64,000 nucleotides of DNA from Bryobacterales bacterium. Lineage in GTDB: Bacteria; Acidobacteriota; Terriglobia; Bryobacterales; UBA6623. This document shows, piece by piece, positions 3,960 through 29,333 of the stretch. The stretch's first letter is position 1, and every line of letters starts with the position of its first letter. A model generated the notes under the pieces. It was not told where the DNA came from. It saw only the letters and a program-made list of their open reading frames with translations, and did not search any database. A program made the position numbers and the translations under genes. The stretch is taken from the NCBI GenBank assembly GCA_965242625.1, contig CBDEST010000005.1:2483767-2547766 (forward strand), in the 5' to 3' direction.

Positions 3960-3960
3960 C

Positions 3961-4890: not shown

Positions 4891-5859
4891 TCAGCCTGCC
4901 GGATCAGGGGATTCCTCCGCACTCGGATCCGGCCCGGTCTCGCCGTCCCGTTGACCGGCCTGCTCTTGGTCGGGGACCGCTTGGCGCGCCAAGCCGGTTG
5001 CGTGCGCCGCCTCCGCCCGCCCGCCCGCCAAGGGACCCATCGATCCGGCGTAGCGCTCGACCACCTGCGCCGGACCCGGCTCGCCGTCAATCCCCGGCGA
5101 CGGATCATGACCCCGTCGCTGAGAGTGCCGTCCTGATCGCGGTGCCGCATCCTCGGGGACACTGCCAGCGCCCTCCGCCCTGCCCACGCGGTAGCTCAGG
5201 TCGCGGAGCGCGGATTGGATGTCGCGTAGCCCAGTTTGGGTGTCGCGGTGGCGCTCCTCGTTCCGCTCGTCGGACTGCTTGTACATTGCCAGCAGTTCCG
5301 CCTTGTCGCGAGCCCGCTGGTCGACGATTGACCGATGGCGTTCTGCGATCTGCTCCTGGGTCTGCTTGTACGCTGCCAGCAGTTCCGCCTTGTCGCGAGC
5401 CCGCTGGTCGACGATTGACCGATGGCGTTCTGCGATCTGCTCCTGGGTCTGCTTGTACGCTGCCAGCAGTTCCGCCTTGTAACGAGCCCGCTGGTCGACG
5501 GTTGCCCGATGGCGTTCTGCGATCTGCTCCTGGGTCTGCTTGTACGCTGCCAGCAGTTCCGCCTTGTAACGAGCCCGCTGGTCGACGGTTGCCCGATGGC
5601 GCTCCTCGCTCCGCTCGTCGGACTGCTTGTACGCTGCCAGCAGTTCCGCCTTGTAGCGAGCCTGCTGGTCGACGATTGCCCGATGGAGCTCCGCAATCTG
5701 CTCCTGGGTCTGCTTGTACATTGCCAGCAGTTCTGCCTTGTCGCGCTCCTGCCGGCGGAAGTGAACCTTCACGGCAATGCCCCCCAGTCCCAGGAGCAAG
5801 CTCACAAGCACGCCGAAAATCCACAACACTAGGGAACTGATGAAGATGCCTTGATCCAT
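4891..5859 (-). CDS. Membrane-anchored tandem-repeat coiled-coil protein (function unknown)
   Basis: ATG at 5859 follows GGAGAAGGAAG. The N-terminus has a TM helix (FISSLVLWIFGVLVSLLLGLGGIAV). About 6 repeats of 29 aa follow (AELLAAYKQTQEQIAERHRATVDQRARYK). The tail is Pro/Gly/Glu-rich. Confidence 0.55.
   Translation of the reverse strand: MDQGIFISSLVLWIFGVLVSLLLGLGGIAVKVHFRRQERDKAELLAMYKQTQEQIAELHRAIVDQQARYKAELLAAYKQSDERSEERHRATVDQRARYKAELLAAYKQTQEQIAERHRATVDQRARYKAELLAAYKQTQEQIAERHRSIVDQRARDKAELLAAYKQTQEQIAERHRSIVDQRARDKAELLAMYKQSDERNEERHRDTQTGLRDIQSALRDLSYRVGRAEGAGSVPEDAAPRSGRHSQRRGHDPSPGIDGEPGPAQVVERYAGSMGPLAGGRAEAAHATGLARQAVPDQEQAGQRDGETGPDPSAEESPDPAG
5245..5760. repeat. 87-bp in-frame tandem repeat, ~6 units
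   Basis: Unit starts fall at 5275, 5362, 5449, 5536, 5623 and 5710, an exact 87-nt period. Two adjacent unit pairs are nearly identical. Confidence 0.9.
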
Positions 5860-6773
5860 GCGATTCGCTTCCTTCTCCGACTCGGCCGCTGCAATCGTTC
5901 GTTGCCGCTCCGACCAGTGTAGCACAGCGGGCGGAGTGGCTCGAAAGCGATCCTCACGGCTTGGGATTTTTCGCTGTTCGGACGTGTAGTCCAAGGCCGT
6001 TTCGCGGTCGGGAGTCCGGCTTGGACACAACGGGATCCGTGCGTGGCTGACAGAACTCTCTGCAGTGCGTTTCAGCAAGCATCGCGCCGGTACCGGAATA
6101 CAACGCCGCTAATCCGGTTTTCTCGGCACGGTCACTTTCCGCAGACTCAGTCGGGCGGGCAGCGGCCGACGAACCGGTTCCATGGCGTGCGGTGCGCGTG
6201 GCGCGGCCCGATGGGGAGCCGCGCTTCAACCCGCTGCCGCGTGGGCGCCACGACCTTGGCTCCCGCGAATTCGGCGAGTCCCGTCTATGGCATGTCGCCG
6301 TGCTCGGCGAGTGCTTCGCCACGCACGTGGTATGCATGGCGATCAAACGAGAAGACCGGCGCGGGGCGTGCCTGGACGGGACGTTTCGAGAGCCGGGTGC
6401 CATTCGTGTGCGACACGTCGCCGTGCGCCAATCGCAGCATTTCCGTGCTGCGGATACTCGGCAGGACGGCCTGCAGCGAGGGACTGCGGTCCGCTCGTGC
6501 GCGGGAATCGGACACGCCGAGGTGTGCTGGACGCGCTACGCAGGGGCTTCCACGGCGTTGCAGTGCCCCGCAGCCACTCTGGATCGACGATGCCGTTAGT
6601 GCTGGAGGTCGAAAACCCTCTAGCAAGCCAGTCGAGACTGGCGGGCCAGAACATTGGAGTCGCCTGCGGAACTATGTGCCAGTGGCGGTGCTGCTGCGGG
6701 GATTGCTATGTGCTGAGGGCGTAAGCGCCGCTCAGAATGGCTAGGCGCACCTACGGACCCGCGGGGAATCCGC

Positions 6774-8048: not shown

Positions 8049-9626
8049 ATGCGCTCATTCAACACAACGGGACCAATGGTCGAGCAGGATCACTACTGCA
8101 TACCGCCATTGGAGCGCGTGGACTTGGATTGCGTGTTGAGTCTAGTCCGCGATCAGGAGTACTTCACCGTGCACGCCCCTCGGCAAACCGGCAAGACTTC
8201 TCTGCTGAAAGCCCTCCAAGACCTACTCAATAGCGGCGCCGTGGGCAGCTATCGTTGCGTCTATGTCCACTTGGAAGGCACCCAGACAGCTGGCCAAGAT
8301 GTCGGCCGGGCGATGCAATCGATCCTCGGTGGAATCGCCCTGCGGGCCCGGCTTGCACTCAAGGACCAATTCGTGCAAGAGACTTGGAGCGACTCGCTGG
8401 AGAGGGCGGGGCCCTACGGAGCGCTCACACGTGTGCTTACGAAGTGGTCCCTGGCCAGCCCAGAGCCGCTGGTGCTGCTATTCGACGAGATCGACGCCCT
8501 AGTAGGGGACACGCTGAATTCGGTGCTGCGGCAGTTGCGCTCCGGTTACGACAGAAGACCCGATAGCTATCCGCAAAGCGTCGTCTTGTGCGGAGTGCGA
8601 GAGGTGCGGGACTACGGGATTCACTTGGGTACGACGGGCGAGGCCGTGACGGGCGGCAGCGGGTTCAATATCAGCGCGGCGTCGTTGCAGCTGGGAGATT
8701 TCGGGCGCGCGGAAGTGGAGGTGCTGCTGGGTCAGCACACGGCCGAGACGGGGCAGGAGTTCGAGCCCGCGGCGCTGGAACGCGTGTGGACGCAGACGCA
8801 AGGGCAGCCGTGGCTGGTGAACGCACTCTGCACGGAAGCCTGCTTCAAGAGCCCGCAGGGGCGCGACCGCAGCCGTGCCATCACGGAGGACGACATCCTC
8901 GATGCTCAGGAAGTCCTCATCCAAGGGCGGGTGGGGCGTCTGCGCCAGCTCGCCCACAAGCTGCGCGAGGAGCGCGTGCAACGAGTGATCGAGCCGATGC
9001 TGAGCGGATCGCTAGGGCACGATATCTCCACCCATGATTACGAGTACGTGCGCGACTTGGGACTGATCGCCGCCGGCGGCGAGATGCGGATCGCCAATCC
9101 AATCTACGCGGAGTTCATTCCACGCGAGCTGACATTCATCCTGGAGAAGCTCTTGCGCCAGCAGGTGGCGTGGGACGTGAGCGGGGAGGGCGGCCTCGAG
9201 AGCGGCAAGCTGCTGGCAGCGTTCCAGCAGTTCTTTCGCGAGCAAGCGGAGTCACGGCTGGAGCGGTTCGCTTACAAGGAGGCGGGCCCGCAATTGCTGC
9301 TCCAGGCTTTCTTGCAGCGCGTCTTGAACGGCGGGGGGCGCATCGAGCGGGAGTACGGCTTGGGGTTCCAGCGGGTGGACATCTTGATCCGGTGGCCGCG
9401 CCCGCAGGGCATGCAGCGATTCGTGATCGAGTGCAAGGTCCGCAGGGGGAAGCTGGAGCGGACGATCGCGGAGGGCTTGGAGCAGACCGCTGGATACATG
9501 GACCGGTGCGGCGCGGACGCGGGTCACCTGGTGATCTTCGAGCGCGGCGAGAAGCCTTGGAAGGAGAAAGTGTTCCACCGGAGCGAGGAGTTCGACGGCA
9601 CGCCGGTCGAGGTGTGGGGCATGTGA
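8049..9626 (+). CDS. AAA-ATPase-like protein with C-terminal PD-(D/E)xK nuclease domain (AAA-ATPase_like / PDDEXK_9 type)
   Basis: ATG at 8049. The N-terminus NTTGPMVEQDHYCIPPLER and Walker A HAPRQTGKTS are present. The C-terminus RVDILIRWPRPQGMQRFVIECKV is a D...E-x-K motif. Confidence 0.7.
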   Translation: MRSFNTTGPMVEQDHYCIPPLERVDLDCVLSLVRDQEYFTVHAPRQTGKTSLLKALQDLLNSGAVGSYRCVYVHLEGTQTAGQDVGRAMQSILGGIALRARLALKDQFVQETWSDSLERAGPYGALTRVLTKWSLASPEPLVLLFDEIDALVGDTLNSVLRQLRSGYDRRPDSYPQSVVLCGVREVRDYGIHLGTTGEAVTGGSGFNISAASLQLGDFGRAEVEVLLGQHTAETGQEFEPAALERVWTQTQGQPWLVNALCTEACFKSPQGRDRSRAITEDDILDAQEVLIQGRVGRLRQLAHKLREERVQRVIEPMLSGSLGHDISTHDYEYVRDLGLIAAGGEMRIANPIYAEFIPRELTFILEKLLRQQVAWDVSGEGGLESGKLLAAFQQFFREQAESRLERFAYKEAGPQLLLQAFLQRVLNGGGRIEREYGLGFQRVDILIRWPRPQGMQRFVIECKVRRGKLERTIAEGLEQTAGYMDRCGADAGHLVIFERGEKPWKEKVFHRSEEFDGTPVEVWGM

Positions 9627-9742
9627 AGCCGGTCGCGCTCGCGCGGGAGGAGCGGCGGGGAGCGTTAGCCCGGGCGTCGGTCCCGGATGATCCAGACTGA
9701 TAGGTGGCAGATCTATCCGACCTGATGGTTGACACTTCCAAG

Positions 9743-9795
9743 GTGCCGGAGCTTGGCCAAGCTCCGGCACGGCACCTCCCCGCTGACGCGGGGAG
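9743..9795. terminator. Two hairpins between convergent genes (possible bidirectional terminator)
   Basis: A perfect 28-nt palindrome gtgccggagcttggccaagctccggcac spans 9743-9770. An 8-bp stem ctccccgc-tgac-gcggggag follows. Both lie between the 8049..9626(+) and 9890..10855(-) stops. There is no U-run. Confidence 0.4.
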
Positions 9796-9845
9796 GGAGA
9801 TCGCAGCTGCGAAAGGCGCTTCCGGAGCCAAGCCAGGAATCGCTC

Positions 9846-11038
9846 TGCGCAGCATCATTTCCAACATACAAGCGTGAACGCGGCCGCGCTCAGGCCGCCT
9901 CCCGCAGCTCCGCGAAGAGCGCCTCGCGCGCCTCTTGCAGCGTGCGCGCCGTCGAGTGTTCCGTCTGCGCGTGCGCCTTGCGCCGCTTCCCCTTGTCTTC
10001 CGTCTCCACGCGCGGGAACAGGCACGGCCGGTGGTAATTCAGGTACGGGTCTAGCCACTCCCGGTGGAACCGGTCCAAGCGCTCCGCGCGGCGCCCCGGG
10101 ATGTGCCCGTACCCGAACTGCTTGCGGATCACGCTGCCGTTCTTGCTCTCCGCCAGGGCCTTGTCGTTGCTGCGCCGCAGGCGCGACTTGGTGAACTCCT
10201 CCACGCGCAGCTTCTCCAGCAGCGCGGCCACCTGGTAGTTGATGTACTCGGATCCGTTGTCGGAGTGAAACCCATGCACGACAAAGGGGAACGACGCCAG
10301 CAGCCGCTCCAGCACCGGGATCAGGTAGCGCTCCGAGATGCGCTCCACGCAGCCCGTGAACTGGTACTGGGTGACCTCGTCGACCGCGTTGACGTGGTAC
10401 ACCCCCTTGACCTTGTCGAGGTCGCCCTGATGCACCGAGTCCACCCGCACCCAGCCCGGGCGGCCCTCCGGGCGCGGCTGGCGCCGCTCGCTGATCGGCA
10501 CCGTCGCGGGGCGCGTGGCGTCCAGGCTGCCGAGCACGCGCACGTACGCCTGGGAGCGCCGCAGGTTGTACAGATGGCCGTGGGAGAGCCCCGCCAGCCG
10601 CTCGTAGCGCTCGTCGCCGAAGACCTCGAAAGCGCGCCGCAGCGAGGCCATCGTGGACAGCCCCAACAGCGTACCGTGCAGCGCGTCCGTCTCCGCCAGC
10701 AGTAGGATGTCGTCCCGCGTGTAGCGCCGCCGGAACGGTCGCGCCGCGCCCTTGCGCCCGTCCGCCAGCTTGCCTTCCGCGATGTACGCCGCGATCAGCC
10801 GCGCCACTTGCGCCCGCGACAGCCCCGTCGTGCGCTGCAGGTACGTCCGCAGCAAGCCCCGCTCCGCGCGCTTGTGCAGCTTTCAGTACGAGAACGGCCG
10901 CAACATCCGCCTCACGTGCGCGTACGCCTCCGCCAAGGTTCGGTGCGTCGCCAGATCGAGTTGCAAGATCACCCTCCGATGATCCGCGCATCCCCACCGG
11001 AGCCTCGTTCGGGCTCACTTCTCGTTGGACAAGACTGG
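9846..11038 (-). mobile_element. Probable IS carrying a DDE (rve) integrase; boundaries tentative
   Basis: The end motif gctcacttctcgttggacaagactgg at 11013-11038 recurs as solo copies at 41299-41323 (inverted) and 15910-15935. An imperfect inverted match tttccaacatacaagcgtgaac lies near 9850. Confidence 0.4.
9890..10855 (-). CDS. DDE-type integrase/transposase (rve core); N-terminal region interrupted by an in-frame TGA
   Basis: Motifs are HQGDLDKVKGVYHVNAVDEVT, HGFHSDNGSEYIN and KALAESKNGSVIRK. The frame upstream reads ...AYAHVRRMLRPFSY*KLHKRAERGLLRTYLQ with TGA at 10883-10885, so the gene is probably decaying. Confidence 0.7.
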   Translation of the reverse strand: MLRTYLQRTTGLSRAQVARLIAAYIAEGKLADGRKGAARPFRRRYTRDDILLLAETDALHGTLLGLSTMASLRRAFEVFGDERYERLAGLSHGHLYNLRRSQAYVRVLGSLDATRPATVPISERRQPRPEGRPGWVRVDSVHQGDLDKVKGVYHVNAVDEVTQYQFTGCVERISERYLIPVLERLLASFPFVVHGFHSDNGSEYINYQVAALLEKLRVEEFTKSRLRRSNDKALAESKNGSVIRKQFGYGHIPGRRAERLDRFHREWLDPYLNYHRPCLFPRVETEDKGKRRKAHAQTEHSTARTLQEAREALFAELREAA

Positions 11039-11050
11039 TAAAATCGCGGC

Positions 11051-11284
11051 GTGGCTATCCGCTCGATCCGGAGCGCTGCTCTGCGACAGCTCTGGGAGGA
11101 CGACGATGCGAGCGGCCTGCCGCCCAAGGACATCCGACGACTGCGCACGATCCTACTGGGCCTCCACGCGGCCGCCGAGCGACGCGACCTCCAGCGCCTC
11201 CGTGGCATTCATCGGCTGCGCGGCGATCTTGACGGCTACTGGTCCGCACGCGTAGATCGTCACCGGAGGGTCGTGTTTCGCTAG
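11051..11284 (+). CDS. higB: HigB-like (plasmid_killer/RelE-fold) toxin, C-terminally truncated by a TAG
   Basis: IRSIRSAALRQLWEDDDASGLPPKDIRRLRTILLGLHAA ... LRGDLDGYWSARVDRHRRVVFR*. After the TAG the same frame continues EDGAAHDVDY, the expected HigB end. Confidence 0.6.
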   Translation: MAIRSIRSAALRQLWEDDDASGLPPKDIRRLRTILLGLHAAAERRDLQRLRGIHRLRGDLDGYWSARVDRHRRVVFR

Positions 11285-11335
11285 GAGGACGGCGCTGCGC
11301 ACGACGTCGACTATCCAGGCTTTCGTTACATCGAC

Positions 11336-11653
11336 ATGCCCAAGCCCACACTCAAGCCCATGCGCAACCCGCCCCACCCGGGTCTCGTGGTCCAGGACCT
11401 TGGTTTTACCGAGGGCACCCAGCGCTCGGAGATGATCGAGCGGATCGGACTCGACCGCGCCGAGATCGACCCTGTGCTCAATGGCGAGGCTCCCCTGACC
11501 GCCAGCGTGGCCATCGCGCTGGAGGATGCCGGGATCTCCAGCGCGGCTTACTGGCTGCGGATGCAGTCGATTTACGACCTCGCCCAAGAGCGGCTGCGCC
11601 GCGACAGTACCACCGTCTCCGAGGCGGCGGGTTCGGCGGCGGTGTCGCCGTAA
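11336..11653 (+). CDS. higA: HigA-family antitoxin (XRE-type HTH)
   Basis: MRNPPHPGLVVQD...GTQRSEMIERIGLDRAEIDPVLNGEAPLTASVAIALEDAGISSAAYWLRMQSIYDL is the typical HigA signature, and the gene lies next to higB. Confidence 0.7.
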   Translation: MPKPTLKPMRNPPHPGLVVQDLGFTEGTQRSEMIERIGLDRAEIDPVLNGEAPLTASVAIALEDAGISSAAYWLRMQSIYDLAQERLRRDSTTVSEAAGSAAVSP

Positions 11654-12236
11654 GCGACTGCGACTACGGACGCGGTTCCCGCCGTTGCGGGCTGATCCGC
11701 CGCTAGCAGCGTGTTGCAATGCTTCGTCGGCTGGCGAGGTCCACGGTATCGGCTGTGAGTGCCCGCGAAACGACGGCGCTCTGGCACTTCGAGGCCACCG
11801 CGGCCTGTTTTGTGGCCGTATCGATGTCCAGGGCAGACCATTGAAATCGCCGTTGACACTCTTGTAACAGGCTCCTACTGTTGAGTCAGGTCGCGATTTG
11901 CGGATAGACTGACTTAACAGTAGCTTCGCTGTAACTGCTCACCTAGGGTAGCGGCGGATCGGTGCCAAGCAGTGGTGGGTCGAGGCACAACTGGCGGTGA
12001 GCACAGGCAAATTCAATGTTCGGGATCGCCAGGCTTGGCTGGGCTTGCTAGCGGGATTTTCGACCTCCGTCGCCCACGGAAATGTCGATCCAGAGTGGCT
12101 GCGCGGTGCCGGAACGAGGTGTCGGCACCCCTTGGGGGGCCTTCCGGCTCGGCGTGCCGATTCCCGCGCACAGGCGCACTGAACCCCTTGGCCGCCGTGC
12201 GGCTCGTGGCTAGTTGCAGTCGCGCGGTTAGCGCCG

Positions 12237-12421
12237 GGTCGCCAACCTCCAGATGCTGCGCTCCGGCTGCAATGCTCGCAAGGGCACCGGTACGCACGAG
12301 CTGCTGCTCGCTCATCTGCGAGCGGACGGGATACTGCAAGAGTGAGTGTCCATATGGACTTGGAGCGGAAACGAGCTGTACCACAACATATGGTGTCTAC
12401 TGTAGTTGAGTGCGTACCTAG
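12237..12421 (+). mobile_element. 3' remnant of a second copy of the MTase-HNH TIR element (HNH tail + right TIR)
   Basis: ANLQMLRSGCNARKGTGTHELLLAHLRADGILQE* matches the end of 16611..17831. The right TIR gtctactgtagttgagtgcgtacctag spans 12395-12421. It is followed by the same flank attccgacgat. Confidence 0.75.
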
Positions 12422-12458
12422 ATTCCGACGATTCCCGATTACGCGGGTCGCTCGGTGA

Positions 12459-12626
12459 GTGCCGCTCCCAACGCTCCTTGGATGGGTCCTCTATCCTCGC
12501 CGCCGCCGAAGATCCCGCCATCGAGGTTGAGTACCCACGCCTCCAGCAAGCCGACAAGATCGTTGCGAGTGTCGCCGCTAGAGCGGCGCACCAACCCTCC
12601 CGCGAGGGAACTGTGAGATAGGCTCT
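12459..12626 (-). pseudogene. Decayed copy of lipoprotein-gene 3' end (d segment)
   Basis: ORF-track 12439..12705(-) contains SLAGGLVRRSSGDTRNDLVGLLEAWVLNLDGGIFGGGEDRGPIQGALGAA. Confidence 0.55.
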
Positions 12627-12639
12627 CCGTTTCGAGGCA

Positions 12640-12876
12640 CCGAGTGGCGGAGGAAGGTACGTGCCGATACCCGGATGCGGCGAGTTCAAGGAGCAATCTA
12701 TGCACAACAGGATCCTATGCGTAGACCTGTACTTCGAAGGCCAAGCATCGCGGCTCGCGAGTCCCGCGACAGCCGGAGATGTGGTGACGCTGAGTGCATT
12801 GGAGGAATTTGGGAACGAAGGAAGGACGAGACAGTCGGAGTCAGGAGAGGATGCCTCGGCACGAGCAGACCGGTGA
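12640..12876 (+). pseudogene. Uma2 type-A remnant (C-terminal part only)
   Basis: MPIPGCGEFKEQSMHNRILCVDLYFEGQASRLASPATAGDVVTLSALEEF. The deletion junction matches those at 3961 and 18100. Confidence 0.6.
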
Positions 12877-16372: not shown

Positions 16373-16449
16373 CTGGGAATCGGAAGCTACGGCGAATGTA
16401 CTCGCGCTAGGTCGCAAGCCCGCAGGACACGCTCTCGAATTCCGACGAT

Positions 16450-17894
16450 CTAGGCATGTACTTGGCTACAGTAGACCGGAAAACACCACAACATGTTGAT
16501 TCTCGCAGTGGATTGGCACTCGCGGCGAGACACTGGTATCGTGAGCCGAACTAGAATGCTCCGGCGACGGCTGCGACCGCCCCGGAGCGTGGTAGCAATG
16601 GAGGCGCTACATGACACAGCTTTGCAACCGGACGCTGTTCACGGGCGACAACCTGCCCATCTTGCGCGGCATGAATAGCGATTCCGTAGACCTGATCTAT
16701 CTGGATCCTCCGTTCAACTCGAACGCGACCTACTCCGCTCCCGTGGGCAGCGCGGCCGCCGGAGCGGCATTCAAGGATTCGTGGACGCTGGATGATGTGG
16801 ACGCCGAATGGCACGGCCAGATCGCCGACGAGCATCCGGCCCTGTACAAGATCATCGACGGCGCGGGCGCGGCGCACTCAAAGGGGATGCAAGCCTATCT
16901 GATCATGATGGGCGTGCGGATGATCGAGATGGAGCGCATCTTGCGACCTACAGGCTCGATCTACCTGCATTGCGACCCGACCGCCGGGGCCTATCTCAAG
17001 ACGCTCATGGACGCCGTGTTCGGGCGCAAGCAGTTCCGCAACGAGGTCGTCTGGAGCTATCGCCGCTGGCCTGCCAAGCATCCCAACTTTCAGCGGATGC
17101 ACGACACCATCCTGCGGTATGCAGGCGAGGGAGCGACATGGAATCAGCAGTACGAACCGCTCGCGGACTCCACGCGCAAGACCTTTGGCACCAAGCGCCA
17201 AGTCGCCGATTTCTCGAGCGGGCACCGGAAGCCCAGCACTACAGCGAAAGAGTCACCCGGCGCACCTATGCGCGATGTCTGGAGCATCGGCGTCATTGCT
17301 CCAGTCGCGAAGGAGCGGTGCGGGTATCCAACCCAGAAGCCCCTATCGCTGTTGGAGCGCATCATCACGGCCAGTAGCAACGAGGGGGATTACGTCTTCG
17401 ACCCGTTCTGCGGCTGTGCCACCACGCTAGTCGCTGCGGAGAGACTGTCCAGAAAATGGGGGGGGGCCGACCTCTCCGACCTCGCGGTCAAGCTCGTCAA
17501 GCAGCGGATCAAGCGCGAGTTGGGCGGACTGCTCTTCGATGTCATCCATCGGACGGACATCCCCAAGCGCACGGATCAAGGGAAGCTGCCCCACTATCGC
17601 AGTCACGCCCATCGACTCTACGGCGAGCAGGAGGGGCACTGCAAGGCTTGCGGGACGCACTTCCCGTTCCGAGTCATGCATGTCGATCACATCGTGCCAA
17701 AGTCTCAGGGCGGCGGCGATGAATTCGCCAACCTCCAGATGCTGTGCTCCGGTTGCAATGCTCGCAAGGGCACCGGTACGCACGAGCAGCTGCTCGCTCA
17801 TCTGCGAGCGGACGGGATACTGCAAGCGTGAGTATCCATATGGACTTGGCGCGGAAACGAGCACGGTGTCTACTGCAGTTAGGTGCGTGCCTAG
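16450..17894 (+). mobile_element. 1,445-bp TIR-bounded insertion whose only ORF is the MTase-HNH fusion
   Basis: The left TIR is ctaggcatgtacttggctacagtagac (16450-76) and the right TIR is gtctactgcagttaggtgcgtgcctag (17868-94), matching at 21/27 positions. Flanking direct repeats are attccgacgat and attcctacgat. Paralogous spacers at ~1520 and ~3765 are uninterrupted. Confidence 0.65.
16611..17831 (+). CDS. Beta-class N6-adenine/N4-cytosine DNA methyltransferase fused to a C-terminal HNH endonuclease
   Basis: GGAGG lies 6 nt before ATG 16611. Motif IV is IYLDPPFNS near the N-terminus and motif I is VFDPFCGCATT later, which is beta-class order. The C-terminal HNH reads HVDHIVPKSQGGGDEFANLQMLCSGCNARKG. 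Confidence 0.85.
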   Translation: MTQLCNRTLFTGDNLPILRGMNSDSVDLIYLDPPFNSNATYSAPVGSAAAGAAFKDSWTLDDVDAEWHGQIADEHPALYKIIDGAGAAHSKGMQAYLIMMGVRMIEMERILRPTGSIYLHCDPTAGAYLKTLMDAVFGRKQFRNEVVWSYRRWPAKHPNFQRMHDTILRYAGEGATWNQQYEPLADSTRKTFGTKRQVADFSSGHRKPSTTAKESPGAPMRDVWSIGVIAPVAKERCGYPTQKPLSLLERIITASSNEGDYVFDPFCGCATTLVAAERLSRKWGGADLSDLAVKLVKQRIKRELGGLLFDVIHRTDIPKRTDQGKLPHYRSHAHRLYGEQEGHCKACGTHFPFRVMHVDHIVPKSQGGGDEFANLQMLCSGCNARKGTGTHEQLLAHLRADGILQA

Positions 17895-17931
17895 ATTCCT
17901 ACGATTCCCGATCACGCGGGTCGCTCGGTGA

Positions 17932-18100
17932 GTGCCGCACCCAACGCTCCTTGGATGGGTCCTCTATCCTCGCCGACGCCCAAGATCCCGCCATCGAGGT
18001 TGAGTACCCAGGTCCACGGCAAGCCGACAGGATCGTTGCGAGTGTCGCTGCTGGAGCGGCGCACCAACCCTCCCGCGAGGGAACTGTGAGATAGGCTCTC
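17932..18100 (-). pseudogene. Decayed copy of lipoprotein-gene 3' end (d segment)
   Basis: My minus-strand translation is SLSHSSLAGGLVRRSSSDTRNDPVGLPWTWVLNLDGGILGVGEDRGPIQGALGAA. Confidence 0.55.
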
Positions 18101-18116
18101 CGTTTCGAGGCCCCGA

Positions 18117-18371
18117 GTGGCGGACGGAAGGTACGTGCCGATACCCGGATGCGGCGAGTTCAGGGAGCAATCTATGCACAGCAGCAGGATCCCATGCGTA
18201 GACCTGTACTTCGAAGGCCAAGCATCGCGGCTCGCGCGTCGCCCGACAGCGGGGGACGTTGAGGGCGTTGGAGGAACTCGGGAACGAAGGAAAGACGAGA
18301 CAGGCGGAGTCAGGAGAGGATGCCTCGGTACGAGCAGACCGGTGATCCAGCGGTCGAGTCGTGGAGCCTAG
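18117..18371 (+). pseudogene. Uma2 type-A remnant (C-terminal part only, degraded)
   Basis: ADGRYVPIPGCGEFREQSMHSSRIPCVDLYFEGQASRLARRPTAGDV. This is a paralog of 12640..12876 within the segmental duplication. Confidence 0.55.
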
Positions 18372-20340: not shown

Positions 20341-20349
20341 ACTGCGACT

Positions 20350-20578
20350 CGTCAGCGGCAACCACGCTGGCCATGGAGCGTTGCGCATGAACATCGAGCT
20401 TGGGGCTCGTCAAGGTGAGGAGGCCGTATCCGTGCAATTGAAATCAGGGCATCCGGGATGCCGGTGCTTGGTCGCGACGCCCTCGACCACATCCTGCCGA
20501 AACTTTCTCAACTAGCCAGACATCAGGTTACCTGAGCCTTCAGGATTGGCTGGGCGTCAGGGGTATCTGGGCAGTTAC
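20350..20578 (+). mobile_element. Solo right end (229 bp) of the IS66-family element
   Basis: It is collinear with 25120..25348 in the same orientation. Homology stops exactly at the TIR ...tcaggggtatctgggcagttac. Confidence 0.8.
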
Positions 20579-20739
20579 CAATCCGCAGTCGCAGAGTGGA
20601 GGGAAGGGGCGCCGGCCGACGATGGAGGGAGCACGGATTCCGGCGTCCAGCACCATCCCGCCCGTGCCTCTCACTCCACTCCGACCGCGCTTCCGCGCCT
20701 CCTCAGCAAACCCGGCGCACGGATTTCCCGCACCGGCCC

Positions 20740-21573
20740 CTAGGCAGTTACCCCCTTGACTGCTTTCTGTTCCCTGAGTCGATAGAGCCCTCGCAGCAGT
20801 AAGACGAGGGCCCGATCAAGGTACGGTGTGTCGGCGAGGTACCGATTCTCTTCCTCGGTCAATCCATTATTCAGGTCCGCCGCCCCGTAGCCCTCGAATT
20901 GGCACTTACCTTCCCATGCGGGCTCGGAGCGCGCGAATGGTGTGACAAGGCCGAGCGTGGCGGCGATGTCGTGAGCGCAGCCCCCGAAACTGCCCACGAG
21001 AAACAGCGCCTGGCGCGCCGAGAGGCTGCACAACGCCTCTTCCGCGATGCCCGGCATGATGCCCTTGTAGCCCTTCACCCTCCCGCCCAGGAGAATCCGG
21101 CAGTCCGTCGCCTCGCGCATCACCCGGCGCATGGCCGTGAGACCTTCGGCCCACTGGTCGTCAGTCGGTTCCGAGCGGCTGGCGACACCGCGATCTAGCA
21201 TTGACACGGCACTGCCGTCTATGCCGAGAAGGGCGAGCCTGCCCACCCCGGACAACTCCTTGGCAGTCTCCTGCAGATCCTGGAACGGGGTCCGTATGTG
21301 GACGGGCCACGCCAAGTAGTTGACGATTCGGATCTCGTCGGGATCTTCGCCGCGAGCGTACCGCTGGGCGAGTTGGAATAGCAGCCTCGTGAAGCCGTAT
21401 TTCCTCAGGTCGCCGCCGTAAGCGAGATCCGCGCCCTGAGCGAGCATGAACGTCGCCAGATCGGCGATCGCATCCTTCAGGTGTCGCTCGCGCAGACCGA
21501 GGGCCGCCATGTCGGGGCTCTCCGAAACAGAAATCGCGACAACTTCCGGACGATCGGGACTCCGGACTGTCAT
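20740..21573 (-). CDS. Stand-alone SLOG/LOG-like Rossmannoid nucleotide-binding protein (tentative)
   Basis: ATG 21573 overlaps the upstream stop (ATGA). Motifs are VVAISVSES, GADLAYGGDLRKYGFT and ILLGGRVKGYKGIMPGIAEEA ... LVGSFGG. No SIR2, TM, Macro or nuclease domain is visible. Confidence 0.5.
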   Translation of the reverse strand: MTVRSPDRPEVVAISVSESPDMAALGLRERHLKDAIADLATFMLAQGADLAYGGDLRKYGFTRLLFQLAQRYARGEDPDEIRIVNYLAWPVHIRTPFQDLQETAKELSGVGRLALLGIDGSAVSMLDRGVASRSEPTDDQWAEGLTAMRRVMREATDCRILLGGRVKGYKGIMPGIAEEALCSLSARQALFLVGSFGGCAHDIAATLGLVTPFARSEPAWEGKCQFEGYGAADLNNGLTEEENRYLADTPYLDRALVLLLRGLYRLREQKAVKGVTA

Positions 21574-22748
21574 GATGGTTGACCCCCTTCCCATTCGCTG
21601 AATGCATGTAACGCGACGTCACTTCGAACTGCGCCGAACAACTTTACCTCGTCCCCCAGCATAGGTGGATCCGGATACACGATCTCCGTCCAGTCCCGCT
21701 CGCCCCGCAGGCTCCGTATCGAGAGCGAAGCCAGTTCCGGTGCGCGGGAAAGAAATAGCGTTCCAGGGTTGTCCTCCTGCAGTTCTTTCGTACGACATAG
21801 CCATAGATAGTGGAGCATTGTTTCGTCAAGAAGGCACCTGATAACGCTTGCGATACAGCCCGTGTCGGATGGATCCATGCGGATCGCGGGCACGTTTCCG
21901 AGATATGGAAACGCTCGTTCGTCTTTAGATCTCACGCAATCGACGACGACCATGGGCACACAATTCTGCTTGGCTTGAAGCACTTCGCGACAGCACCACT
22001 CACGCGAGGAGTAAGTGTCCGTGCGGATCGCCAGCAAGACACTATTCGGAATGGAATCCAAAATGACCTGTTCGAACGAGGAGCCGGGAGCAACGTCTGC
22101 GGTGTCCATGAAGCTTGCGAGAGCGGCATCCTCGTGGATCCAATTGCGAATCCGATTCGCAATGAACTCTCCATATTCGTCACGCTTTGAATGGCTCAAG
22201 AACACTTTGACCTTCTGGCGAGCGGCATCCCGCTGCCCCCTGTCCTCACGGTCACTCGATTTTGCATACCGCTGCCTGAGCATGCGAATGAATGCATGAA
22301 CCAAGTCGCGGACGAGCTTTTCCCTGTGCATGTCGCACTCAAGACGCCATCTATCCCACCTGATCCCTTGCACCCCAAGCCCACCCACGGGCAGGGAGCC
22401 ATCGATCAAGACAGGAAACACGCCGGCGCCGGGCGAACGCCGCGCCGCGCTCTGCTCGAGCTCTTTGAGATATCTGACCGCTCGGGAGTCTTGCACCAAG
22501 TCGCGGTTGAGGAAGACGACTACGGCCGTGGTGTCCGCTCGCTCCCAGTCCACAGGCCCGGGACCGCTCCCCTCGCTGGACAGGGCGCGATACGAGATCT
22601 GAACACGGGCCCCGGCCGTGACATTACGGAACCGGTCTGCATCGAACTGCTCGTGCAGCCAGCCTGCGAGTGCCTCGCCTTCGCTGTATCGCGCGTGCCA
22701 GACGAGATGGAGCGCGAAAGTCGACTTCGTATGGCTCGTCATGCCCAT
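21570..22748 (-). CDS. TIR-domain protein (C-terminal TIR; N-terminal ~170-aa TIR-like alpha/beta region)
   Basis: The C-terminal half reads KVFLSHSKRDEYGEFIANRIRNWI ... VLLAIRTDTYSSREWCCREVLQA. This gives the beta-A FLSHS-x-D motif and the alpha-C S-x-WC-x-x-E motif with the Glu retained. Confidence 0.7.
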   Translation of the reverse strand: MGMTSHTKSTFALHLVWHARYSEGEALAGWLHEQFDADRFRNVTAGARVQISYRALSSEGSGPGPVDWERADTTAVVVFLNRDLVQDSRAVRYLKELEQSAARRSPGAGVFPVLIDGSLPVGGLGVQGIRWDRWRLECDMHREKLVRDLVHAFIRMLRQRYAKSSDREDRGQRDAARQKVKVFLSHSKRDEYGEFIANRIRNWIHEDAALASFMDTADVAPGSSFEQVILDSIPNSVLLAIRTDTYSSREWCCREVLQAKQNCVPMVVVDCVRSKDERAFPYLGNVPAIRMDPSDTGCIASVIRCLLDETMLHYLWLCRTKELQEDNPGTLFLSRAPELASLSIRSLRGERDWTEIVYPDPPMLGDEVKLFGAVRSDVALHAFSEWEGGQPS

Positions 22749-22829
22749 GGCCCTCGGTCTACGCTATTCGATCCCAACCTGCAGGTTCCCGCGAATCCGG
22801 GCACGGTCGGAGCGAAGCGACCCTCACGC

Positions 22830-23396
22830 CTACACAAGCCGCGTGGACCATAGTGCCTTAATCCAACTGTCCAATGCAGCTTGGTTGTGCAAACCCTTCA
22901 GAGCACCGACCACGGCTGGCAAGGGGGGCGCAGGTGCCCCGGCGTTGTACATGATCCGAGCTCGGGGCTTGTCGAGCACATGCGCTCCGCCAACCTCGTA
23001 GCCGATCCACATGGAATCCGCGATCCGAGCAATCACGTGAACCAAGAAACCCCGGCTCACGCGGATTGCCTGCATGATGTGGTCCGGCAAGGCAGGGGAA
23101 CCTGGATCCGTGATCGTGCCGTCCCATTCGGCCATGTACACCGCTACTTTGTGCATGGAAGAAATGTACCTTGCCACGCGCTCCGCGGCTGAGTCGCCCG
23201 TCTTGTGCGACATGAACACCAGCTTCTGGAGCGTCTCAATGTGCGCGGGCGTGAAATTGAGTCTCCGCAGGGAGTCCGCTGTGTCATCACGCAGGAGCGC
23301 TCGTACTGCCCGCTCCGCATCATCGCGTCCGACGATGTCGGAACTTACGTGCTCGCCGAGAACGATCCTCTTGAATTTGATAGCAATGGACTGCAT
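22830..23396 (-). CDS. TIR-like (ThsB-like / DUF1863-type) protein
   Basis: AGGAGG lies 9 nt before ATG 23396. Motifs are KLVFMSHKTGDSAAERVARYI ... VAVYMAEWD ... ADSMWIGYEVGGAHVLDKP. Confidence 0.55.
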   Translation of the reverse strand: MQSIAIKFKRIVLGEHVSSDIVGRDDAERAVRALLRDDTADSLRRLNFTPAHIETLQKLVFMSHKTGDSAAERVARYISSMHKVAVYMAEWDGTITDPGSPALPDHIMQAIRVSRGFLVHVIARIADSMWIGYEVGGAHVLDKPRARIMYNAGAPAPPLPAVVGALKGLHNQAALDSWIKALWSTRLV

Positions 23397-23436: not shown

Positions 23437-25348
23437 GTAACTGCCCAGATACCCTGATCGGGCTTGGTTGCAGCGATGGGTAGCGGGCATGGCTGGCGGA
23501 TGTCGTACTAGGTGCGGCTCGGAGCGGAGCGGGGGTGCTGTCGAGGAGGTAGTTGACAGGGGCGTGCAAGCACATGTAACGTAGGAATTGTTCTGAGGGC
23601 GCGGGCACTCGGGCAAGTCATGGCGGCAGCGTTCCCAACGGCGGAGCAACAGCCGGGGGCGGCAGGTGGGCTTGAACAGCTCCAACAGCGGCAAGCCGCC
23701 CTCCAGCGACGGGCTGCGCAAGCCGCGGCGCAGCCAGAGCACCCGGGGCGGTTCCGGCAAGCCTTCGGGCGGCCAGCCCGGCCATCCGGGCACGACGCTG
23801 AAGCAAACCGCCGACCCGGATCACATCGAGACGCACCGGCCGGCGCACTGTGCCGGCTGCGGCGCGCCGCTGACGGCGGCCGACAGCGTGAGCTACGCGC
23901 GGCGGCAAGTGTTCGACTTGCCGCCGCCGCGCGTCGAAGTCACCGAGCACCAAGCGTACCCCTGCCAGTGCCCAGCCTGCGGGCACCGGACGCGGGCGGA
24001 ATTCCCCGACAGCGTACGCGTCCCGGTGCAATACGGCCCGCGGATCCAGGCCATGGCGGTGTACCTGCAGAACTGGCACTTGCTGCCCGAGGATCGCCTG
24101 GCGGAGCTGTTCCGGGACCTGCACGGCGTCGGCATCAGCGCGGGGACGCTGGCGAACATCACGCGCCAGGCGGCGGATGGCTGGCGGGCGTGCAGCGAGC
24201 GGATCCGGGATCTGCTGGTGGCCGCGGACGGCCCGAAGCACTTGGACGAGACGGGTTTCCGGATCACGGCGTGCGGGCAGTGGCTGCACGTGGTCTGCAC
24301 GCGGTGGCTGACGTTCTACCGCACGAGCGAGCGGCGCGGCAGCCTGCTGGCCGGCTTGCGCGGCTGCTTGGCGCACGATCACTGGAAGCTGTATTTCACG
24401 GTGCCGGACGTGCAGCACGCGCTGTGCAACGCGCATCACCTGCGCGAGTTGGAAGTGCTGGCGGAGATCGACGGGGAGGCGTGGGCGCGCCCCATGCAGG
24501 ACTTGCTGCGGATGGCGAGCCGCGCGGCGGGGATCGCGACCGAGGAGGGCTGGACCCTGCCGCCGGATCTGGTGGGATGGTTCGAGCAGCGCTACGACCG
24601 CTTGGTGGCGGGGGCGCTGGAGTACCACGAGGGGCTGGAGCCGTTGCGCCCGGCGGGCAAGGGCCGGAAGGGACGCCCGAAGCGGTGCCCGGGGCACAAT
24701 CTGGCGTTGCGGTTCCGGGACTTCAAGACGGAGACGCTGCGCTTCCTGCACGAGCCCGGGGTGCCGTTCACGAACAACCAAGCGGAGCGGGACCTGCGCA
24801 TGATGAAGCTGCGCATGAAGATCTCGGGCGCGTTCCGCTCGGCGCAGGGTGCCGCGGATTTCGCCACGTTGCGCGGCGTGCTGTCGACCGCGCGGAAGCA
24901 AGGTCGGAACCGCATCGAGGCGCTCATGCAAGGTCCGGCCGTGCTGCTCGAAGGCCTGCGCTGCTAGCGCGCGCCCGGCACCCGCCCCGCTGGTCCGGCC
25001 CCGCCGGTACCGGGCGGCGGTGCGCCCCGCCGCCGGATGGGAGGCGAGGATGTCTTGCGCTAGTCCGCCCCCAAGCATGCGGGGCGGCCGTTGGGCGAAG
25101 TGCTGCGAGACGGGTCTGTCGTCAGCGGCAGCCACGCTGGCCATGGAGCGTTGCGGATGAACATTGAGCCCGGGGCCCGTCAAGGTGAGGGGGCCGTATC
25201 CGTGCAATTGAATTCAGGGCATCCAGGATGCCGGTGCTTGGTCGCGACGCCCTCGACCACATCCTGCCATAACTTTCTCGACTAGCCAGACATCAGGTTG
25301 CCTGAGCCTTCAGGATTGGCTGGGCGTCAGGGGTATCTGGGCAGTTAC
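23437..25348 (+). mobile_element. IS66-family insertion sequence (single tnpC-type ORF)
   Basis: TIRs GTAACTGCCCAGATACCCTGA and its imperfect inverse lie at the ends. A GTAA start is typical of IS66. The flanking 8-mers differ (gcagacgt vs taacattc). Confidence 0.85.
23666..24967 (+). CDS. tnpC: IS66-family transposase TnpC; start/N-terminus uncertain
   Basis: Motifs are LNSSNSGKPPSSDG, the zinc-finger-like CAGCGAPL...CQCPACG, HLDETGFRI, LCNAHHLRE and FTNNQAERDLRMMKLRMKISG. The track start is GTG, and no leucine-zipper N-terminus is seen. Confidence 0.85.
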   Translation: MGLNSSNSGKPPSSDGLRKPRRSQSTRGGSGKPSGGQPGHPGTTLKQTADPDHIETHRPAHCAGCGAPLTAADSVSYARRQVFDLPPPRVEVTEHQAYPCQCPACGHRTRAEFPDSVRVPVQYGPRIQAMAVYLQNWHLLPEDRLAELFRDLHGVGISAGTLANITRQAADGWRACSERIRDLLVAADGPKHLDETGFRITACGQWLHVVCTRWLTFYRTSERRGSLLAGLRGCLAHDHWKLYFTVPDVQHALCNAHHLRELEVLAEIDGEAWARPMQDLLRMASRAAGIATEEGWTLPPDLVGWFEQRYDRLVAGALEYHEGLEPLRPAGKGRKGRPKRCPGHNLALRFRDFKTETLRFLHEPGVPFTNNQAERDLRMMKLRMKISGAFRSAQGAADFATLRGVLSTARKQGRNRIEALMQGPAVLLEGLRC

Positions 25349-26394: not shown

Positions 26395-26423
26395 CCTAAT
26401 CACCGCCCCGCATCCAATGGGTG

Positions 26424-26525
26424 TTATATACCAATCGATGCGTCCAGATTGTAGATCGTCTGGACGGGTTGCGCCGGAGCGGCGATGCCGCACACCAGCA
26501 CGGCGATGATGAGCAAGATAGTCAT
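26424..26525 (-). CDS. 33-codon hydrophobic peptide ORF
   Basis: GGAGG lies 7 nt before ATG 26525. The peptide is MTILLIIAVLVCGIAAPAQPVQTIYNLDASIGI*. It ends 29 nt before the 26394 start. Confidence 0.4.
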   Translation of the reverse strand: MTILLIIAVLVCGIAAPAQPVQTIYNLDASIGI

Positions 26526-27165
26526 GTAGCACCTCCTACATGCTGCCATGCGCCGGGGCGGTTGCGGCCGTCGCCGACGCGACTTCGATTCGGAATCATG
26601 ATACCAGCGTCGCGGCACGGGTGTCAAGATCGGAAAAATCCATTATGGCACAAGGGCTTGGCTACTTTGGTATATGATTCCTGTTGAGAACCACGTGCGG
26701 TCGAGCGATACATCTCGCGATCAAATCAATTTGACCCATGAACAGCGACAAGCGACTTGCACGATGAGTCGTGAACTGCTGGGGTATTCGCTTCGTGAGC
26801 GTGAAGTGCTCGGCAATCGAGATCGGTTCGAGCTCACGGTACGGTTCTCCTCAATCAGCGATTGCGACCGCAGCATCGTGCTCGCCGAGGTCTCACAATG
26901 GAAGGTTTGCGTCCCATGAGAGACACCGCATTCTCGCCCACCGCCGAGCAGCGTTGGATCCTTGCCCGAATCAACCCTGACTCGCCCCGCGACATCAGTT
27001 CCCGCGCGGATGTCCTTTGGGGCTATGGTGTCCTCTATCGCAAGCACGGGGTCCGCAAGCCGTCCACCGCATACAGGGATGGCGAACCGGTCCATCGCAA
27101 TCACCCGCTCGCCTTGACTTGCTGGATATGGGCGAACCTCGACCCGCACTGGGCACCGTCCACTA

Positions 27166-27950: not shown

Positions 27951-28115
27951 TAGCTACCCGCTCTCGATTTACTCCCGCGGCGACTGGCCTGCACCGGAAC
28001 TCTGGCCAGAGGGCAAGGTCGGAAGCCCAAGCCCCGTGCCGGACACCAACCCAGCCCGACTCAAGAACGCTCCGTACTTCCCCATCGAACCATTGGAGAC
28101 ATGCGAGGAACCGCC

Positions 28116-29333
28116 ATGACCATTGCCGAGATGCTGGATCGGGAGGATGTCCTGATCTTCGATACCGAGACCACGGGGTTCGCCAAGTGGTCCGAGATCG
28201 TCGAGATTTCGATCATCGACACACGGGGCGATGTGCGACTCAACACTGTTGTCATGCCCCGTGGCACCGTGCTGGAGGACGTGGTCAAGGTCCACGGCCT
28301 CACCAAGGAGCGGCTAGCCGAGATGGACGCCCCGCAGTGGACAGACGTATTCAAGAAAGTCCAAGCGGTCCTCGGAGGCGCGCAAGTACTCGCCGCGTAC
28401 AACTTCGCCTTTGACCGGCGGATGATCGAGCAGACCAATCAGAAGCACCGCACCGGATTCGATCCGTACATCAAGATGCCGTCGAACTGCTGCATCCTGC
28501 GCGAGTACAAGCGGTTTGTCCGCCTCGGCCTGACCGACCTCGAACTTCCTTCATCCAATAATCTGTCCGAAGCCTACACCGCTCTAACCGGCGAGGAACC
28601 TTCGGATGAGCACCGAGCACTCCCCGATTGTCTGGCGACGCTCGCGGTCATGCGCGTCATGGCAAGGCACTACCGCGAAGCTGGTTGCTCGCGGACTGTC
28701 GAACTTTCCACCGCTCCCCGCTACACACCGCCGACGTCGAGGCGAGCGGAAGGCAAGCAGTTCGCCATCACCGGCAAGTTCGCCAAAATGTCTCGATCCG
28801 TACTGGTAGGTTTGATCCAGAGCGGCGGCGGCAGTGTCACTCAATCTGTCAGCCCACGCACTGATTACTTGGTTCGTGGCAACAGCCCCGGCAAGACCAA
28901 GACGAGGGGCGCGAACGAGCACGATGTAAGAGTCATCGGCATTGCCGAGGTACTGAAGATGCTTGGTTCCCATGAGGTCAAGACTGATACCGTGCATGAT
29001 GAACCGGTGCCGGTGGGCACGGTCAGAGAAAACGTAAAGCGTCCGCCGATCAATCCGGCCAACTTCAGAGGGTATGAGCAACCGGAGTGCCGCGGTACTG
29101 CGCTTGCAGGCAAGCGGCTCGCCATAACTGGAGTGTTTGCGGAGTTCTCCCGCCGCGAAGTCCAGACATTGATCTCAGACCATGGCGGAGAGGTGACGAA
29201 CCACATAAGTCGCAAGACTGATTACTTGGTCGCTGGAGAGCGGGCTGGATCCAAGCTCGCCAAGGCCGGGAAGGCGGGCACTTCTGTCATCACCATCCAC
29301 CAGCTCCTGAATATGATCCAGCCCCACGAATAG
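28116..29333 (+). CDS. DEDDh 3'-5' exonuclease (DnaQ/epsilon-like) fused to two BRCT domains
   Basis: Exo I is LIFDTETTG, Exo II is AAYNFAFDRRM and Exo III is HRALPDCLATL. Two LigA-type BRCT repeats follow (GKQFAITGKF...TDYLVRG; GKRLAITGVF...TDYLVAGERAGSKLAKA). GAGGAA lies 6 nt before ATG 28116. Confidence 0.8.
   Translation: MTIAEMLDREDVLIFDTETTGFAKWSEIVEISIIDTRGDVRLNTVVMPRGTVLEDVVKVHGLTKERLAEMDAPQWTDVFKKVQAVLGGAQVLAAYNFAFDRRMIEQTNQKHRTGFDPYIKMPSNCCILREYKRFVRLGLTDLELPSSNNLSEAYTALTGEEPSDEHRALPDCLATLAVMRVMARHYREAGCSRTVELSTAPRYTPPTSRRAEGKQFAITGKFAKMSRSVLVGLIQSGGGSVTQSVSPRTDYLVRGNSPGKTKTRGANEHDVRVIGIAEVLKMLGSHEVKTDTVHDEPVPVGTVRENVKRPPINPANFRGYEQPECRGTALAGKRLAITGVFAEFSRREVQTLISDHGGEVTNHISRKTDYLVAGERAGSKLAKAGKAGTSVITIHQLLNMIQPHE

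Follow-up and report, generated by a model that had tools for sequence, protein, structure and literature searches.

A DNA methyltransferase-HNH nuclease gene as sole cargo of a probable non-autonomous transposon of IS1595-family lineage in a Bryobacterales bacterium

Mobile insertion cassettes, for example MIC231 of Bacillus cereus, consist of passenger genes lying between the ends of an insertion sequence (IS), in this case IS231, and are moved in trans by the IS231 transposase. Restriction-modification (RM) units that lack a transposase and are bounded by terminal inverted repeats (TIRs) were described by Furuta, Abe and Kobayashi in 2010, among them a type II unit of Xanthomonas oryzae with 65-bp TIRs and a type IIG unit of Neisseria gonorrhoeae with 26-bp TIRs, each flanked by an 8-bp duplication; whether such units are mobilised in trans or by themselves was left undecided (PMC2853133). 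That article cites, for IS-linked RM and solitary methylase genes, the definition of the IS1595 family with its passenger genes by Siguier, Gagnevin and Chandler (2009). Members of this family have GG termini, usually generate an 8-bp duplication and encode a zinc-finger DDE transposase (PMC8101967). No publication describing IS1595 elements with a methylase-HNH passenger, or the cassettes reported here, was found in the literature covered, which was incomplete and did not include the 2009 family-defining paper. Here we describe a stretch of 64,000 nt from a Bryobacterales bacterium (contig CBDEST010000005.1; hereafter the window), in which a gene for a DNA methyltransferase fused to an HNH nuclease domain (methylase-HNH) occupies a small TIR-bounded segment at 16450-17894. 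The evidence makes it likely that this segment is a non-autonomous transposon, that is, a mobile insertion cassette or transposase-deleted transporter IS, derived from an IS1595-family lineage and most likely moved in trans.

The inserted segment, its ends and the corresponding empty sites have the following features.

16439-16449, + strand: left target-site duplication copy, ATTCCGACGAT; this 11-mer recurs with one mismatch 3′ of the right TIR and is single in the empty paralogous spacers.
16450-16476, + strand: left TIR, the "type A" end, CTAGGCATGTACTTGGCTACAGTAGAC.
16477-16498, + strand: subterminal motif CGGAAAACACCACAACATGTTG, which holds the palindrome CAACATGTTG.
17842-17849, + strand: 8-nt relic GGACTTGG of a "type B" right TIR (GGGCTTGGCTACTTTTGTATATAATTCCC in close relatives; see below), of which by sequence comparison it is the inner portion.
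17868-17894, - strand: right TIR, degenerate, the reverse complement of CTAGGCACGCACCTAACTGCAGTAGAC, matching the left TIR at 21/27 positions.
17895-17905, + strand: right copy of the target-site duplication, ATTCCTACGAT, an 11-nt direct repeat with a 10/11 match.
3756-3766, + strand: empty paralogous target site, CTTCCGACGAT, a single occurrence.
1516-1526, + strand: second empty paralogous target site, CATCCGACGAT, a single occurrence.

Reading of the sequence confirmed the segment as the preliminary description of this DNA had drawn it, with a length of 1,445 bp and imperfect 27-nt TIRs. It interrupts a repeated spacer, borne by repeat units in which Uma2-family genes are present, and the window contains two paralogous spacers without the insert. 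When 16450-17905 was excised in silico, the remainder aligned without gaps to the paralogous spacer at 3617-3925, and it also aligned with the spacer near 1516-1526, bearing out the earlier claim of uninterrupted paralogues and a duplication of 10-11 bp with one mismatch. The TIR boundaries are therefore defined independently by the empty paralogues and, with positions preset in this way by the insertion boundaries, a match of 21 in 27 would be expected by chance with a probability of about 5e-8 for this base composition. The 27-nt repeats, which had been considered as possible parts of the ancestral repeat, are absent from the empty paralogous spacers. The junctions read AT/CTAG...CTAG/AT (slashes marking the boundaries) and are palindromic, so that the exact boundary is ambiguous from the sequence: the duplication measures 10-11 bp if the TIR starts with CTAGG and 9 bp if the terminal T/A pair is included in the TIR. 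The element contains 160 nt 5′ and 63 nt 3′ of the methylase-HNH open reading frame (ORF), its sole long ORF; no transposase is present inside it and, since only these two short stretches flank the ORF, there is no room for one, as had been noted previously. The motif CGGAAAACACCACAACATGTTG is also found inside the right end of a second copy (copy 2), of L091 and of L094 (homologous loci introduced below), and has been deleted at the right end of the window element. Because of its degenerate right TIR, a 15-nt right subterminal deletion and the one mismatch in the duplication, the window copy is probably old and by now immobile.

The DNA around the closest homologues of the window protein was fetched and compared; these loci are numbered with the prefix L. 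In L094, which encodes a protein 75% identical to that of the window, the flanks are unrelated and include NspV-like and MmeI-like genes. The left junction there reads ...taaATTAACGTAT/CTAGGTATGTACTTGGCTCCAGTAGACCGGAAAACACCACAACATGTTG... and the right junction ...ACTGGAGCCAAGTACATACCTAG/ATTAACGTAT/cta..., giving a perfect 23-nt TIR of the window type and a perfect 10-bp duplication, ATTAACGTAT, of another target (8 bp if the terminal T/A pair is counted in the TIR). The window and L094 share the element alone and no flank. Since the same ends are accompanied by a perfect duplication of a different target within unrelated flanks, L094 is an independent insertion of the same element type, and the concern raised previously, that the window might hold the only insertion anywhere, no longer applies. 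At the left end the two elements agree at 48 of the first 50 nt, whereas synonymous divergence of their cargo genes is about 0.8 per site, and the ends have thus been conserved far beyond neutral expectation.

Other close homologues are bounded by a different, type B end, GGGAATTATATACAAAAGTAGCCAAG(CCC), which starts GGGAAT, type A being that of the window element. Single-gene cassettes with type B ends are L001/L002 (88% identical), L003 (80%), L093, L095 (74%), L096 (70%, degenerate) and L099. A small element within the window also belongs here.

26413-26686, - strand: 270-bp mini-element with type B end AGGAATCATATACCAAAGTAGCCAAGCCC, carrying the same promoter and leader as the window element and a 33-codon hydrophobic ORF (MTILLIIAVLVCGIAAPAQPVQTIYNLDASIGI) instead of the methylase gene.

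Either the mini-element arose by deletion or it represents the same vehicle with a different cargo. Counting it, seven close homologues (L001/L002, L003, L093, L095, L096, L099 and the window at 26.6 kb) are cassettes in differing neighbourhoods, and these cassettes have a sigma-70-like promoter and a two-hairpin leader in common.

Complete relatives were recognised when ORFs flanking about 60 more distant homologues were clustered, which yielded one family, of 305-332 aa, encoded directly beside the methylase-HNH gene. Its members are IS1595-family transposases (Pfam DDE_Tnp_IS1595, E 1e-37 to 1e-46, together with Zn_ribbon_IS1595). Transposase-bearing relatives are L004, L005, L021, L033, L046, L058, L084 and L098, L084 being the one useful locus from a scan of metagenomes with the single window protein. 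The metagenome-assembled genomes (MAGs) with transposase-bearing loci are labelled Rhodobacter, Dehalococcoidia, Rhodothermales, Thermoanaerobaculia, Halioglobus, Poribacteria, Arenicellales and others. The TIRs of these two-gene units begin GGGAATTAT(A/G)TA, which is the type B terminus, and are flanked by clean 8-bp duplications.

L004: TIR 33/33; duplication AAATCTTT.
L005: TIR not scored; duplication CTAGCGAG / CTAGCGCG.
L021: TIR 39/40; duplication TCTGTTTT.
L033: TIR not scored; duplication TATCGTTG.
L058: TIR not scored; duplication AAAGTAAT.

Complete members of this lineage therefore encode a DDE transposase next to the methylase-HNH gene, and they are the autonomous elements with homologous TIRs that the preliminary description had proposed looking for. 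In a joint alignment the type A TIR was colinear with the IS1595-type end of L033/L058 from position 7 inward (TATGTACTTGGCTCC versus TACATACTTGACTCC); the outer 5-6 nt differ and type A is one base shorter. Adding the flanking T/A pair to the TIR, as this alignment suggests, would shorten the duplications to 8 bp (L094) and 9 bp (window), both inside the 7-9 bp range of the IS1595 family. Compared with an IS1595 transporter IS, the window element thus shares colinear TIRs with complete relatives that have the zinc-ribbon DDE_Tnp_IS1595 transposase, TIRs starting GGG and 8-bp duplications, but it lacks the transposase, its tip is CTAGG and not GGGAAT, and its duplication is 10-11 or 9 bp. Lacking the transposase, it is a derivative of the IS1595 family and not a strict member.

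These findings suggest how the element may have moved. A DDE transposase made elsewhere would bind both inverted ends, excise or copy the element and join it to staggered cuts in the target, and repair of those cuts would leave the flanking direct repeat. With its own promoter and a leader that could fold over the ribosome-binding site, the cargo might then be expressed at any landing site; this cargo would be a single-chain adenine/cytosine-N methylase with an HNH domain, which a poly-G frameshift could turn off. Since the window element and L094 share a transposase-less architecture despite a near-saturated synonymous divergence of about 0.8 substitutions per site, loss of the transposase preceded both insertions, and cassettes that moved after this loss would have required a transposase supplied in trans. 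The suggestion that this is a cargo-carrying non-autonomous transposon moved in trans is in this way supported both by L094 and by the transposase-bearing IS1595 relatives.

The alternative that comes nearest to accounting for these data is that a whole IS was inserted and its transposase deleted in place, leaving a decayed IS that never moved without a transposase of its own. Complete elements with both genes exist, the window copy is decayed (right TIR, 15-nt deletion, mismatch in the duplication) and the region is rich in rearrangements, all of which agree with such a history. It would nevertheless have to explain why the window and L094 elements, at unrelated sites with their own duplications and with the same divergence between them, have the same architecture and the same 50-nt left end, and why type B cassettes share one left TIR-promoter junction at no fewer than five loci. 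Identical deletions arising independently are very unlikely, and we regard deletion in place as improbable.

Movement in trans of an IS1595-derived cassette places the window element within a known kind of element and calls for no new mechanism of moving DNA. As in MIC231, IS-type inverted ends enclose one gene that does not encode a transposase, a target duplication flanks the unit, and copies occur at different sites; the parent, however, is IS1595-like and not IS4/IS231, and mobilisation in trans, which is experimental for MIC231, is inferred here from sequence comparison. The RM units of Furuta and colleagues likewise have methylase or nuclease genes, imperfect TIRs, a short duplication, an empty site and no internal transposase. 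They differ in that here the parent autonomous family can be named through its transposase-bearing relatives and the cargo is a single methylase-HNH fusion rather than separate R and M genes. The locus is thus a well-bounded case of an RM-like gene spreading as the sole cargo of a small transposon whose parent family is nameable, and on the question left open in 2010 the evidence favours movement in trans by a DDE transposase (PMC2853133).

Several observations weigh against this reading. The 64-kb window contains no IS1595-family transposase and no other copy of either 27-nt end at three mismatches or fewer, the 27-nt TIR pattern was unmatched in a species-representative genome collection to which the source genome does not belong, and a cognate transposase in that genome is thus hypothetical. 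The window TIR has CTAGG at its outermost 5-6 nt (TCTAGG with the flanking T) in place of the canonical GGGAAT, so that the terminal GG of the family is absent, and the duplication of 10-11 bp (or, with the T/A pair in the TIR, 9 bp for the window and 8 bp for L094) compares with a family norm of 8 bp. In the type B cassettes the candidate 8-bp duplications are all decayed, with 6/8 matches in L003 and L095. Finally, L091 and L092, from close strains, keep the right end and its flank and have another left end, and the history of the copies is to that extent one of rearrangement. Viral contigs scanned with both TIR types gave single unpaired matches only, consistent with chance, and these were disregarded.

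The cargo gene and its upstream region comprise three features.

16513-16542, + strand: sigma-70-like promoter, TTGGCA, an 18-nt spacer and TATCGT, with TG upstream of the -10 box.
16558-16610, + strand: 5′ leader with two hairpins.
16611-17831, + strand: cargo gene for a predicted beta-class N6A/N4C DNA methyltransferase with a C-terminal HNH nuclease, 406 aa.

A homologous promoter, TTGAC(A/G)-17-TGGTATCGT, is present in L001, L003, L094, L095 and the window at 26.6 kb. The first leader hairpin (GCTCCGG...CCGGAGC) spans 16558-16588, and the second (GTAGC-aatGGAGGc-GCTAC), at 16592-16610, encloses the ribosome-binding site. In the alignment the stem of hairpin 2 shows compensatory changes, from GTAGC/GCTAC in the window to GGAGC/GCTCC in L003 and GAAGC/GCTTC in L094 and L095. 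A search of the element against Rfam gave no match.

The encoded protein matches Pfam N6_N4_Mtase (PF01555) over residues 26-297 (E 1.6e-39) and HNH (PF01844) over residues 344-388 (E 4e-13), and its methylase and nuclease activities are predicted from this domain content. Motif IV (DPPF, residues 32-35) is N-terminal to motif I (DPFCGCATT, 264-272), which is the beta-class order, and the predicted structure (predicted local distance difference test score, pLDDT, 71.5) matches CcrM, M.BceJIV, MboIIA and RsrI. The HNH residues C344xxC347, D359-H360, N374 and C379xxC382-N383 are invariant in 27 homologues, and the Cys4 zinc site is intact. The ratio of nonsynonymous to synonymous substitution (dN/dS) was 0.08-0.24 in comparisons with six transposase-less relatives; the protein is therefore under purifying selection, that is, maintained among the cassettes. 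Between the window and L094 the gene varies strongly in its central third, which is probably the target-recognition domain. A search for a characterised relative in the PDB found none, PADLOC models matched the methylase part alone, and in phage and plasmid collections the methylase domain was found and the fusion was absent. The cargo is most likely a selfish or defensive module resembling an RM system.

The preliminary description regarded a methylase-nuclease carried between TIRs as unusual, a view that the comparison did not uphold: more than 8,000 homologues have the same methylase and HNH domain pair, an IS1595 transposase adjoins the gene at 14 of about 90 homologue loci (tblastn), and transposase-less TIR-flanked RM units had already been reported (PMC2853133). 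The partnership of IS1595 transposase and methylase-HNH protein appears old and widespread, occurring in MAGs labelled Poribacteria, Dehalococcoidia, Binatia, Rhodothermales, Alpha- and Gammaproteobacteria, and others. The partner transposases are only 33-54% identical to one another across several phyla, and pairwise divergences of transposase and methylase are weakly correlated (rho 0.29), a value that fits one old partnership or repeated capture and cannot separate the two. Genome matches were mostly to MAGs with sponge-associated lineage names (Poribacteria, Poriferihabitaceae, Porisulfidus, Dehalococcoidia, Caldilineaceae and Binatia). Proteins 40-58% identical across phyla suggest that the element has been exchanged within one habitat. 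For annotation, the methylase-HNH gene should be flagged as cargo of a mobile element, and the repeats beside it read as transposon ends. In a Flammeovirgaceae MAG (L036:1427-5817), three methylase-HNH paralogues stand in tandem, at 1427-2860, 3001-4287 and 4414-5817.

It had also been proposed that the HNH-methylase itself takes part in mobility. It could act as sole mobiliser of the cassette or as an accessory nuclease of the IS1595-type transposon, in the manner of TnsA in Tn7 or of TnpB/IscB in IS200/605. Such a role would explain why the gene always travels with these ends, as the sole ORF in at least nine cassettes and under the strong purifying selection described above, and the occurrence of its transposase partners in several phyla means that the association is old or recurrent. 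Against this, both TIRs and a nearby transposase are missing from most homologue loci, the mini-element at 26.4-26.7 kb has the same end and promoter and no methylase gene, and the weak correlation between the divergences of the two proteins does not favour it either. The targets are unrelated AT-rich sequences while the putative recognition domain varies, which argues against site-specific homing. We know of no HNH enzyme that carries out strand transfer giving target duplications. A motif resembling GTAGCCAA recurs both in the ends of the "planctomycete" cassettes and in the surroundings of a spirochaete homologue of 39% identity, as this proposal might predict; the GTAGCCAA core is shared with that spirochaete locus (L050), but match counts in correct and control orientation were similar across loci and the motif was given no weight. 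No positive evidence for mobilisation by the protein emerged, and we consider it quite unlikely, although the same question was left open for TIR-flanked RM units (PMC2853133).

At most of about 60 distant loci flanking repeats did not rise above shuffled controls, and for the most part distant homologues with no transposase close by are free of them, from which it follows that the repeats belong to the transposon and not to the protein. Flanking inverted repeats were rejected on this ground as a general property of the protein family. A conserved flanking motif was also sought by k-mer enrichment and discarded; the enriched 7-mers contained CTAG, were not tied to particular positions and probably stem from intergenic DNA rich in stop codons.

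A related idea is that the methylase-HNH protein is a functional partner of the transposon, for example as an accessory nuclease that cuts either the second strand or the donor site once vacated, or as an addiction module that kills cells losing the element, and that type A cassettes with CTAGG tips depend on it to move. We think the chances of this slight; if true, it would add a new kind of transposon-associated nuclease beside TnsA and TnpB/IscB.

Further remnants of the gene in the window bear on the history of its copies.

12237-12432, + strand: truncated duplicate of the same insertion, with the last ~105 nt of the ORF, the TIR at 12395-12421 and ATTCCGACGAT at 12422-12432; a region with an rve-type IS lies to its left.
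43620-43753, - strand: 5′ relic of a third methylase-HNH copy, with the -10 box, the leader hairpins and the first ~20 codons, followed by unrelated sequence.

The truncated copy retains the right TIR followed by ATTCCGACGAT, as reported previously, but does not represent a second insertion: 12392-12651 and 17865-18124 share 93% identity and remain similar for more than 1 kb. Because this flank is shared with the full copy, the truncated copy is a segmental duplicate and provides no independent evidence of transposition. To its left, the region 9740-12236, between an AAA-ATPase gene (8049-9626) and the truncated copy, contains an ORF with a weakly matching rve integrase core (9890-10855, - strand, E 2e-6). 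In L091/L092 the AAA gene is directly followed by a full methylase copy, and the copy in the window was therefore probably truncated by an IS insertion or a deletion.

L091 and L092 are 91-96% identical to the window at the DNA level and have two gene copies each, in which the right end, ATTCCGACGAT and the right flank are those of the window. The left end differs, with homology to the window starting only at 16577, and one copy has a different right junction. The alternative left end (gagcctgaagcgtggtcgagggatgggatg...) is a dispersed repeat, seen at L091:1995-2115 and 9863-9975 and at 43060-43125 in the window, beside the relic at 43.6 kb. These arrangements are products of segmental duplication and recombination, as fits the repeat-rich setting, and not new insertions. 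The extreme form of such a history, in which the repeats at the ends of the window element are by-products of microhomology or segmental duplication in a repeat-rich locus and illegitimate or homologous recombination, not transposition, brought in the gene, would suit a surrounding 20 kb that is a mosaic of diverged repeat units, the differing junctions of L091/L092 and the segmental origin of the truncated copy, but we give it hardly any credence, as no empty repeat unit contains the 27-nt ends, the same ends recur with a perfect duplication in the wholly different context of L094, and the ends are homologous to bona fide IS1595-type ends with clean 8-bp duplications.

Expression of the cargo may be subject to switching, for which one further feature of the gene is a candidate.

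17458-17466, + strand: G9 homopolymer tract, candidate slipped-strand on/off switch, codons W283-G285.

The tract lies between methylase motif I and the next GxD, directly before this GxD, which is invariant and belongs to the cofactor pocket. No other run exists in the 64-kb window to match it: it is the sole one of at least eight G or C, where base composition predicts about 9.5. Relatives carry G8-G12 at the same site, and the frame is broken at the tract in three independent sequences, L091 (both copies), L092 (both copies) and L093, with loss of the remaining methylase and the HNH domain. Tracts of G9-G12 occur within the clade that we call planctomycete-like, which includes the window cassette. 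Elsewhere in the gene family, homopolymer tracts are found at differing positions (C14 in L021, G13 in L029, G9 in L046 and C9 in L061), a recurrence which suggests that frameshift switches have evolved repeatedly. Phase-variable DNA methyltransferases control the phasevarions of Haemophilus, Neisseria and Helicobacter. The window gene resembles them in having a homopolymer tract inside the methylase ORF whose length varies among relatives and at which frameshifts truncate the protein; by analogy, the pattern is that of contingency loci in phase-variable methylases, and it suggests that the G9 tract switches the cargo on and off. It differs in that the variation in tract length is known between metagenome-assembled relatives and not within one population, and since the frameshifted forms come from metagenome assemblies, they may partly be homopolymer sequencing errors. 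As cargo that often carries such tracts, the gene could provide a route by which epigenetic or defence functions pass between unrelated bacteria of a shared habitat.

The neighbourhood of the element is rich in other repeats and mobile DNA. Another copy of the interrupted spacer carries an insertion of about 106 bp at 1359-1465 that resembles a miniature inverted-repeat transposable element (MITE), with TIRs GTGTCCTGTCTC / GAGACAGGACAC and CTA/CTAG flanks, and is absent from the paralogues at 3700 and 16400; its short CTA-type duplication is reminiscent of IS5-family elements. A complete IS66-family element at 23437-25348 has perfect 18-nt TIRs (GTAACTGCCCAGATACCC) and a transposase gene at 23666-24967 (DDE_Tnp_IS66, E 4.5e-34), and a piece of it of about 230 bp is repeated at 20349-20581. 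Both this element and the rve ORF were considered as transposition partners of the cassette and rejected, their ends being unrelated to those of the cassette. Defence-type genes in the neighbourhood encode SLOG, two TIR-domain proteins (the protein domain of that name), the AAA ATPase and Uma2 nucleases; defence-like genes at 20740-23396 and 28101-29333 comprise a SLOG cluster-2 protein (E 2.5e-67), the two TIR-domain proteins and a fusion of an RNase T-type exonuclease with BRCT domains. Tandem coding repeats are present at 5152-5842, where six 87-bp units lie in an ORF at 4891-6078 (- strand), and at 33910-34928, where units of 183-186 bp lie in a 1,633-codon ORF at 30270-35171 (- strand).

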